This document shows positions 44-1,603 of a stretch of 32,000 bases of DNA, piece after piece; the first letter of the stretch is position 1, and each line of letters begins with the position of its first letter. The notes under the pieces were generated by a model. It did no database searches, was not told where the DNA came from, and saw nothing but the letters and a program-made list of their open reading frames with translations. This DNA comes from Candidatus Poseidoniaceae archaeon (lineage in GTDB: Archaea > Thermoplasmatota > Poseidoniia > Poseidoniales > Poseidoniaceae). Position numbers and translations under genes: made by a program. The stretch covers positions 90,001-122,000 of the forward strand of contig CALSTM010000002.1 of assembly GCA_943789275.1 (NCBI GenBank). The letters run 5' to 3'.

Positions 44-1603
44 TCATTCAGGGATGTAGTAGAGTTCAACACTACCGGTTCCAAGTGAAATTGGTTGTCC
101 GACAATAATGTTCTCTGCAACACCAGTGAGGTAATCCTTCTCTCCGATAACACCGGCCTTGAGCAGGTGGTTCACGGTAACTTCGAAAGCAGCACGAGCA
201 AGAATACTGTGCTTTGTACCTGATACACCGTGTCGACCAATAGCACGAACTTCACCTTCAGAAGTCATAACGTCAGCGACAAGGAGCAAGTGGCGAACGT
301 CAACTTCCAAGCGGGCCCCATCGAGGGTTGCTTGAAGTTCGTTGACAATGGCTTGTCGAGCGGCTTCAATTCCGAGGAAATCAAAGATTTCGATGATGTT
401 GTTGGTGTAGGTTCGGTTGCGATCAATGGTTTCAATCTCGCTGACACGGGTCAAGTTTGATCCGATGGTCGAGAGGTAATACTCGCCCGTTTTGTCGTCA
501 AGTTGGACGTTGGCTCGAGCAATGTTCGGAATTCCCTTCAATCGCATGTCGCGAATCTTCTCTTCCAGTTGCAGAAGCATGGTGTACGAAGGTGGGTTCT
601 CAGCCAGTTCAGCCAAGTCTTCTTCAGAGTGCACACCCGGAATCATAGTGAGGGTTGATGGATTCTTTTCCTTGTCCGCTTGGACAAAGAGACGTGTAGC
701 ACGTTCGAGTTTGTCTTTCACTTCAGCACCGGTCATGTTCTTTTGCTTGAGCATACCCTTGTTGAGCTTGAGCACGAGACGTCGTTGAGCGACGTCCGTT
801 TCCAAAGAAGCAATGTTCACAGTATGTGTTTCTTCAATGGCTGCTGCAAGTTTTTGAGCTTCATTCGCATCTGTCATCTTGTCCTTCGCCAAACGAATAA
901 TCATCGTCGGCGTGTTTGGAACTTTTCGTGCATCGACAATTTCGATAATACGAGGGAGACCTTGAGTGACGTTGACTGTCGCAACACCCGCATAGTGGAA
1001 CGTACGCATGGTCATTTGTGTACCCGGTTCACCAATCGATTGAGCGGTGATAATTCCAGCAGCTTCGTAAGGATCGATGCTTGCACGGTCAAGCGCAACA
1101 ACTGCTTCGTCAACAACCTTCTTTGCTTGTGCCTTTGTTAACTTCTTCTTGCCACGGGCATGAATAGCAACGGTAAGGTCGTGGAAGATGCGGTTGGTAA
1201 ATCGAGCAGAGCCGTTGTCTTCAACAGCAGCAACGAGCGACTTGAAGATTGGGTCTTCACACAACTCATCCTCGTACTCCAGAAGTTTGGATTCAAGATT
1301 GTATTCAGTCATGGCGACCGAAGTCTTGGCTCGAGCAATAGAGCGTCCAGTACGTCGAAGTCGAACCGAGGTTGTCGGTCCGGTGTTTTCGCTGTTTGAA
1401 TCTCCGCCTTTCTTGTTTGCAGCATCAATGGTTGCTTTGATGGTTGCAGCAGTTTCAGAATCGGTTTCACACAGTTGTGCGATTTCGCCTGCAGCGAGAA
1501 TCTTAACATCGTCCCACTTCTTGTCATCTGCAAGGGTGTGAGCGTAGTTTTCTGCAATGCCCAAATCCATGAGCTTCTTCTTGGTTGCACTCTTTACGAC
1601 CAT
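44..1603 (-). CDS. rpoA2: DNA-directed RNA polymerase subunit A'' (Rpo1C) with a ~100-aa N-terminal extension
   Basis: 519-aa ORF. Contains the trigger-loop region [22 protein letters not shown] and other conserved A''/Rpb1 C-terminal blocks ([27 protein letters not shown]). Its ATG overlaps the A' stop by 1 nt (TGATG). Last gene in the H-B-A'-A'' order. Confidence 0.97.

Follow-up and report, generated by a model that had tools for sequence, protein, structure and literature searches.

Here we report a small domain, hereafter the module, that is carried in two diverged copies on a single archaeal RNA polymerase, one at the N-terminus of each of the subunits RpoA'' (Rpo1C) and RpoH (Rpo5). 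Both subunits are encoded in a 32,000-nucleotide stretch of DNA from a Candidatus Poseidoniaceae archaeon (GenBank contig CALSTM010000002.1, positions 90,001 to 122,000), referred to below as the window, whose source belongs to the Candidatus Poseidoniales (Marine Group II), phylum Thermoplasmatota, as judged by related loci and database names. Sequence comparison identifies the first ~66 residues of the two N-terminal extensions as homologous domains; both fusions are conserved across Poseidoniales, and the duplication is old. The module is dual-helix-hairpin-helix (HhH)-like at the level of its modelled fold and, by its sequence, forms a new family without Pfam or NCBIfam match. Many proteins of virus-like elements have the same domain at their N-terminus, so that its role is probably that of a handle, either for DNA or for a partner protein that the carriers share.

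The gene rpoA'' lies at positions 44-1603 of the minus strand, as called in the list of open reading frames (ORFs). Its module spans residues 1-66 (1406..1603, minus strand; A''-type, KKKLMDLG...DDKKWDDVK) and is followed by a linker of residues 67-97 (1313..1405, minus strand), which is Gly/Ser/Asn-rich and then strongly basic and is predicted to be a flexible tether; the span of 1310-1603 given for module plus linker in the initial annotation is correct. The canonical RpoA'' core with the stop codon (44..1312, minus strand) matches Pfam RNA_pol_Rpb1_5 (E=6.7e-51, residues 140-466) and solved Rpo1C chains of 391-397 aa (phmmer, E down to 9.5e-86). The gene rpoH lies at positions 8424-9080 of the minus strand and encodes 218 aa from the first ATG, or 216 aa from the Met at 9074; the latter is the start in most homologues and likely the true one. 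Counted from it, the module again forms residues 1-66 (8877..9074, minus strand; H-type paralogue, KKRLMELG...TDRNMTDIK) and the linker residues 67-97 (8784..8876, minus strand; SRRRSKSKSKKITIRAKAIDDFDRPEITMR, net charge about +7 by direct count on this sequence). The core of Rpo5 / Rpb5 C-terminal type, with lineage-specific insertions and the stop codon (8424..8783, minus strand), matches Pfam RNA_pol_Rpb5_C (E=8.6e-9, residues 147-214), the NCBIfam model 'subunit H' (E=2.6e-11) and, in the PDB, 1hmj and chain H of 7ok0. The Pfam assignments, the PDB homologues and the gene order H-B-A'-A'' identify both proteins as canonical RpoH and RpoA''.

The N-terminal extensions are absent from solved archaeal RpoH and RpoA''. 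Alignment with solved RpoH chains, which are 78-84 aa long, begins at window residue ~95, and window residue 135 of RpoA'' is aligned to chain residue 21 at the start of the match to the solved A'' chains. These alignment starts give extensions of about 87 residues on RpoH and about 112 on RpoA''. The initial annotation knew of no such feature in described archaeal polymerases, in agreement with solved chains that align only past the extensions. As a separate observation, the RpoH core of the window is itself ~120 aa long, against 78-84 aa in the solved structures: relative to the shortest variant among the homologues (P0305) it has additional segments at about residues 111-168 and 172-181, and the other divergent RpoH (P0313) is missing only residues 115-123 and 172-181 of the window protein.

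Each extension consists of three parts: an arm that is basic and invariant (KSATKKK), then a helical domain close to neutral, and last a leash that is again basic. An AlphaFold2 model of the module, built from an alignment of 26 modules, is a compact five-helix domain (mean pLDDT 83.8) with helices at residues 6-13, 18-24, 30-34, 38-45 and 49-64. The full-length RpoH model contains the same five helices, with block-mean pLDDT values of 82-87 across residues 11-60, below 50 for residues 66-97 and, as block means, of 55-82 for the core (98-216). The RpoH linker is accordingly predicted to be disordered, and its composition together with the RpoH model suggests the same for the RpoA'' linker. Among the A'' orthologues listed from GTDB the net charge is +4 to +8 for the linker and -1 to -3 for the module, and the A'' linker, which is low-complexity and basic, varies in length and sequence apart from a T-T-x-V/I-x-L-R-R element. 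The models, the pLDDT profile and the linker charge thus bear out the earlier description of a helical domain plus a basic flexible linker on both N-termini.

That one and the same module had been grafted onto the two subunits was proposed in the initial annotation, and comparison of the two proteins agrees with it. By BLASTP, residues 1-42 of A'' and 3-44 of H share 23 identities out of 42 (E=1e-12), with a local alignment score of 128, as against 24.3 +/- 4.5 in 5000 shuffles (z=23). Between the single sequences, similarity over residues 43-66 is insignificant (p=0.65); profiles of the A'' and H orthologues give a local alignment across all 66 columns (hhalign, probability 99.65%, E=3.6e-25). 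Significant similarity therefore reaches well past the first ~12 residues, over 42 residues in the single sequences and 66 columns by profile. The further claim that it runs on into the linker (SIARAKT versus TIRAKA) did not hold, as the profile alignment is of low confidence past column 66. The two linkers do carry a short element at equal distance from the domain (T-T-S/K-V/I-R/T-L-R-R in A'', K-K-I-T-I-R in H); their resemblance reads as shared basic composition, perhaps with a short motif, and homology is undemonstrated. Only these two copies of the module were found in the window (tblastn). Different synonymous codons are used at 9 of the 23 identical residues and DNA identity between the copies is 77/126, which indicates selection on the protein and no recent copying of DNA. 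A recent duplication or gene conversion of the two 5' ends was considered and is ruled out by these synonymous differences and by type-specific residues that are kept across lineages.

Both fusions recur throughout the order. A search with RpoH returned 765 relatives, of which the best 120 are 205-225 aa long and carry the module, the 205-aa forms being start-codon calls at Met12. A scan of GTDB, with one genome per species, confirmed 555 module-encoding stretches, and the following figures on labels and ORFs are from the best 80 of these. Nearly all lie in genomes whose label is Poseidoniales or a broader euryarchaeal or Thermoplasmatota one; the module ORF matches the A'' core in 79 of 80, and complete ORFs of 517-530 aa make up 72 of 76. 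With the widespread RpoH forms of 205-225 aa, this bears on whether sister genomes keep the extension, as the initial annotation had asked: related genomes of the lineage do. One of the stretches (locus L071) lies in a metagenome-assembled genome labelled Rhodobiaceae bacterium and is probably a binning contaminant. The operon with its two fusions is also found in a more divergent lineage (locus L091, GC 57%), whose signatures, KKKLMD..DDRKWDDVK in A'' and KKRLIE..DDANMDAIK in H, retain the type-specific residues, so that the duplication of the module is older than the split of that lineage. An exhaustive profile search of 1.84 billion cluster representatives gave just 206 matches at E<=1e-3, which leaves no detectable copy on the RpoH or RpoA'' of other archaea.

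Two possible misreadings of the gene models were rejected. An internal start that would yield a short A'' is not supported, the Met at residue 98 being unconserved; the rpoA' stop overlaps the rpoA'' start in a TGATG junction (junction sequence ...GAGAACTGATGGTCGTAAAG), and the module-bearing start of rpoA'' is therefore a translationally coupled one. Module matches of 38-117 aa that might pass for stand-alone proteins are really contig-end truncations, adapter read-throughs (LSLIHI, CLLYTSPSPRD) and frameshifts. Many short 'proteins' from ENA (P0004-P0117) end in such adapter-like translations, namely …LSLIHI, …CLLYTSPSPRD and …VSYTHLTLPT.

In searches with the model of the module against the PDB (Foldseek), the best matches are (HhH)2 domains, though at weak E-values. 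They are those of FANCM/FAAP24, the C-terminal repeats of NusA (4mtn and 6x7k), Hef, XPF, the N-domains of RadA/Rad51, UvrC, LigA and ERCC1/XPF, with TM(query) of 0.6-0.76 and probability up to 0.99; domains of the related SAM fold are likewise within the top 50. The modelled arrangement is that of a five-helix (HhH)2 domain, two motifs joined by a connector helix. When the alignment was read against the hairpin consensus (h-x-x-h-x-G-h-G-x-x-x-A-x-x-h-h per motif), both halves of the module were seen to retain G-[IV]-x4-A-x2-[LI], the core of the HhH signature, the first motif as G15-I-A-E-N-Y-A21-H-T-L24 and the second, in many orthologues, as G46-I-D-S-G-T-A52-x-x-I55, but with the second Gly of the consensus replaced.

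The initial annotation had suggested looking for the module on other proteins, and the same profile search of 1.84 billion representatives found it on many non-polymerase proteins, mostly at residue 1. Carrier families were defined by clustering the tails after removal of the module. Besides an A'' group (17 representatives) and an H group (8), the clusters comprise at least 12 more families of several members each, along with several singletons whose tails are unrelated. These include a family of 210-225 aa with FRGLGSLF repeats, families of ~160, ~170, ~180, ~290 and 316-337 aa, and one of 1,200-1,480 aa represented by the 1,292-aa module-headed protein P0283. In this last family (loci L083 and L096) the module is present in P0283, P0390, P0395 and P0399 and missing from P0389, P0391-P0394, P0396 and P0397, and such presence and absence among orthologues is the mark of a portable unit. 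P0390 and a further protein, P0357, apparently contain two copies in tandem. The carrier modules are mostly A''-type-like and a few are H-type; in many carriers conservation is limited to the first ~45 residues, and the C-terminal part of the consensus over 23 groups reads ..ee.Ah.LA.DRkw..v..l....i. Among recognised cellular housekeeping proteins the only carriers are polymerase subunits A'' and H.

One carrier, an 851-aa protein (P0293 / P0373; locus L094, 2205-4760), combines a C2H2 zinc-finger match with an H-type module that lies internally (residues 93-148) and an ABC-like ATPase of the AAA_15/AAA_21 type, which matches the PADLOC models NsnB (2e-38) and AriA (7e-17) as well as the defence models PDC-M55A and GajA. 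Another, a 193-aa protein (P0288; locus L095, 314-895), has one TFIIB cyclin repeat after the module (25.9 bits in Pfam, where the cutoff is 23.6) and no Zn ribbon; its source is a single low-coverage contig of 970 nt.

From their context, most carrier contigs look like viruses or mobile elements of archaea. They consist of co-directional runs of ORFs without Pfam matches, with scattered genes for three N6/N4 methyltransferases, a thymidylate-synthase-like protein, Fe-S biosynthesis and a NUDIX protein, and further hold a 3,012-aa ORF, tandem arrays of 266-272-aa paralogues, a Holliday-junction resolvase and a TFIIB homologue. One virus-like contig (locus L090, 7074-8752) encodes a module-headed protein of 337 aa; a Holliday-junction resolvase and a TFIIB homologue of its own (phrog_20431, 1e-57) are encoded on this contig too. 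Two cluster members bear the Tara size-fraction labels '0.1-0.22' and '<-0.22', which we read as micrometre filter fractions. In the stretches of carrier contigs examined no capsid or terminase gene was seen; a module-pattern scan of IMG/VR viral contigs gave 6 pattern matches and 0 confirmed ones, and the module consensus had no tblastn match in GenBank phage records. Philosof et al. (2017) described unresolved 'group D' elements from Tara that have a resolvase and a gene annotated 'RNA polymerase A' (PMC5434244); the label of that gene could derive from this module, which is a lead only. On another carrier contig (locus L088, 5973-9999) a module-headed 182-aa gene is directly preceded by five paralogous ORFs in tandem, each of 266-272 aa, and the order further downstream (a 550-570-aa ORF, an Fe-S biosynthesis gene and more ORFs of no recognised type) is shared with L086 and L089. 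Attachment-site remnants were also considered as the origin of the non-polymerase copies and rejected, as these copies have diverged at the protein level with key residues kept. The occurrence of the module on many unrelated proteins of virus-like contigs, which the initial annotation had missed, makes its likely purpose different from that of a polymerase-only feature.

Most likely, the two modules hang on flexible tethers at the lower-jaw side of the enzyme and provide contact points there, either to DNA or to a partner common to both; they would be functional analogues of the C-terminal domain of the bacterial alpha subunit (alpha-CTD), the eukaryotic Rpb5 jaw or Rpo13. In archaea, Rpo5 is without the ~130-residue jaw of Rpb5 (Korkhin et al. 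2009, PMC2675907). The groove that results is positively charged, lies alongside the clamp head, close to downstream DNA, and is filled by Rpo13 in Sulfolobales, partly by the Rpb5 jaw in eukaryotes and by a beta' insertion in Thermus (PMC2675907). The jaw domain itself lies within Rpo1C, that is, A'' (PMC2675907), and Rpb5 contacts the C-terminal part of the largest subunit (PMC13257274). Judging from published structures of other archaea, both leashes would start in this lower-jaw / Rpo5 region, the site of the eukaryotic Rpb5 jaw domain and of Sulfolobales Rpo13, and with ~30 disordered residues each module could reach out over several nanometres. The HhH hairpins, together with the arm and the linker, both basic, would then touch the incoming duplex DNA, largely independently of its sequence, and stabilise initiation and/or elongation complexes; the modules may serve as docking points too. 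As a portable N-terminal adaptor, the module would presumably direct the virus-like, defence-type ATPase and TFIIB-repeat carriers to the same ligand. That the module binds DNA or a factor is something we infer, and the proposal that the tethered modules contact incoming duplex DNA non-specifically and stabilise initiation or elongation complexes is held tentatively, at slightly under an even chance.

Several findings weigh against non-specific DNA contact by HhH hairpins. Foldseek gave its matches at weak E-values (0.6-3.5). In the G-h-G hairpin, A/S/P or D stands in place of the second Gly; position 15 is not always Gly, with L or Q in part of the A'' orthologues, and the window has E at position 46. 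The module has no match in Pfam even at E<=10 and none in NCBIfam, and its profile finds nothing among PDB sequences but noise at E>1, with no HhH family. In hhalign, comparisons with the RadA N-domain (probability 9.9%) and the E. coli alpha-CTD (0.08%), both with manually entered sequences, were insignificant. The location of the A'' N-terminus in the enzyme is taken only from structures of other archaea. The globular part is slightly acidic, like the protein-binding acidic repeats (AR) of NusA, and residues 1-11 are near-invariant across unrelated carriers, as are the probably surface-exposed residues H22, D27, D32 and K34; such near-invariance of the arm and of exposed residues points to a specific partner, not to non-specific backbone contacts.

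These last two properties favour the strongest alternative, a handle for protein docking or dimerisation, in which the modules of A'' and H either form a pair, in the manner of XPF-ERCC1 or FANCM-FAAP24, or bind one conserved host partner, and viral proteins that share the N-terminal ~45 residues attach to or compete at the host transcription machinery. The model is best matched by (HhH)2 domains that heterodimerise and by the NusA repeats, which bind proteins and of which AR2 is a dual HhH motif for protein docking (PMC6614801), and the near-invariant residues 1-11 and several polar residues recur in at least 12 unrelated carrier families. The alternative gains further from the tandem copies in P0357 and P0390, the H-type copy on the defence-type ATPase, the virus-like carriers and the TFIIB-repeat protein P0288, where the module occupies the position of the polymerase-binding Zn ribbon of TFB, ahead of the TFIIB cyclin repeat. 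However, the last point comes from one 970-nt low-coverage contig, and the basic arm and basic linker suit contact with nucleic acid at least equally well. We consider docking on its own possible but somewhat unlikely; DNA contact and protein docking are mutually compatible. A more elaborate version makes the module a swap-in handle for docking at transcription, with the A'' and H copies pairing or sharing a site on the polymerase, viruses or mobile elements repeatedly placing the same unit of ~45-66 residues ahead of their own proteins so as to plug into or displace the host modules and seize transcription, and the NsnB/AriA-type host defence ATPase bearing it as an integrated decoy that senses such proteins. 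As a whole this is quite unlikely; if true, the viral users would include the 1,200-1,480-residue protein and the TFIIB-repeat protein.

The module could instead be a tag for localisation, turnover, post-translational modification or particle packaging, with the polymerase subunits only two of many carriers. The extreme N-terminus is its most conserved part, it sits at residue 1 in most carriers, many keep only the first ~45 residues, and its presence varies within one protein family, all of which would suit a tag. AlphaFold, though, places the N-terminus within a compact domain, unlike a linear signal, and the sole recognised housekeeping carriers are two polymerase subunits that are adjacent in the enzyme. 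We know of no archaeal sorting or degradation signal that resembles the module, and a tag appears very unlikely. An artefact of wrong starts, assembly chimeras, an upstream small gene read into rpoA'' or rpoH, or attachment-site remnants elsewhere was suggested by an initial module search that gave only 38-117-aa 'proteins' and by a separate 89-aa module ORF on one long-read contig, but it is effectively refuted by the nature of the short forms (in locus L001 rpoB and rpoA' are split too), the intact A'' fusion ORF in 72 species-level loci, the RpoH fusion in hundreds of clusters, the overlap of the rpoA'' start with the rpoA' stop, the unconserved internal Met, and the key residues that diverged non-polymerase copies retain, unlike an attachment-site remnant.

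The two subunit genes belong to the typical archaeal polymerase operon rpoH-rpoB-rpoA'-rpoA'', which occupies the minus strand over the first 9 kb of the window; the order H-B-A'-A'', with Pfam Rpb2 domains, recurs in related loci. Between rpoH and rpoA' lies rpoB (Rpo2; 4797..8408, minus strand, 1203 aa), and rpoA' (Rpo1N; 1603..4800, minus strand, 1065 aa) has Pfam Rpb1 domains 1-5. Within Rpb1 domain 2 of RpoA' there is an apparent insertion of ~125 residues (residues ~426-552; 3145-3525, minus strand) that splits the Pfam match in two and has two Cys pairs (CHNPEC...C, CPHC), possibly as a lineage-specific Zn-binding insert. A tRNA-Lys(UUU) gene (9123-9198, minus strand) has the orientation of rpoH and lies ~50 nt ahead of its start. 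A divergently oriented gene (9387-10874, plus strand) encodes a 495-aa protein in which an MTS/PrmA-like small methyltransferase domain is fused to a biotin/lipoate ligase family domain; this fusion gene adjoins rpoH in loci L091 and L092 too, which makes the synteny conserved.

The usual picture of archaeal RNA polymerase is that of a conserved core resembling Pol II. Archaeal RpoH is described as having no N-terminal extension (PMC3906176), a 2026 survey of domain evolution in the small subunits mentions neither Poseidoniales nor an Rpo5 extension (PMC13257274), and no description of an A'' or H N-terminal extension was found in the literature searched. Polymerases with accessory domains on tethers are a kind already known, and so are fillers of the Rpo5 groove that are specific to a lineage; what is new is a dual-HhH-like family that is duplicated on A'' and H and common to virus-like elements. 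Its presence on virus-like contigs from the same waters gives a concrete, testable way into the possible interplay of uncultured marine archaeal viruses with host transcription.

Among known systems, the (HhH)2 domains of XPF/ERCC1, FANCM/FAAP24, Hef, RadA/Rad51 and UvrC are the best structural matches, with five helices and two HhH motifs; their binding to DNA is not sequence-specific, and several form heterodimers. The module differs in having no detectable sequence homology to them and a degenerate G-h-G hairpin, and in sitting on polymerase subunits, whereas theirs belong to repair and recombination enzymes. The NusA domains AR1 and AR2 are likewise dual HhH domains of the transcription machinery, acidic and flexibly attached, and dock alpha-CTD, NusG and SuhB (PMC6614801); they are C-terminal in a bacterial elongation factor, however, and have no sequence relation to the module. 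Rpo13, proposed to aid bubble formation and DNA contact (PMC2675907), is in Sulfolobales and Desulfurococcales a separate helix-turn-helix subunit, whereas the Poseidoniales module is dual-HhH-like and present in two copies, fused in-frame to A'' and H in a Thermoplasmatota lineage; Rpo13 chains were unmatched in the profile search of PDB sequences. The eukaryotic Rpb5 jaw, which lies at the lower jaw near downstream DNA, offers a parallel as an N-terminal addition to an RpoH-like assembly domain (PMC2675907; PMC1802627). It is a domain of ~130 residues (PMC2675907), unlike the ~66 residues on a predicted disordered tether described here, which moreover are duplicated on A''; the Rpb5 N-terminal family (RNA_pol_Rpb5_N) was not matched, a Pfam scan of RpoH giving Rpb5_C alone (residues 147-214).

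The alpha-CTD of bacteria, which makes extra contacts to DNA and factors, is classed among the helix-hairpin-helix folds. The initial annotation had likened the modules to it, and the likeness stands for the architecture, a small independent helical domain, apparently of HhH type, on a flexible, predicted disordered tether with two per enzyme, as an analogy only; a sequence relation does not, with no Pfam RNA_pol_A_CTD match for the window proteins or the module and the insignificant hhalign comparison given above. The alpha-CTD is C-terminal on two identical alpha subunits, whereas the modules are N-terminal, diverged paralogues on A'' and H. Abundant marine archaea, the Poseidoniales seem to have found a fourth independent answer to the 'empty lower jaw', after the Rpb5 jaw, Rpo13 and the beta' insertion of Thermus, in the form of two tethered modules that recall the alpha-CTD of bacteria.

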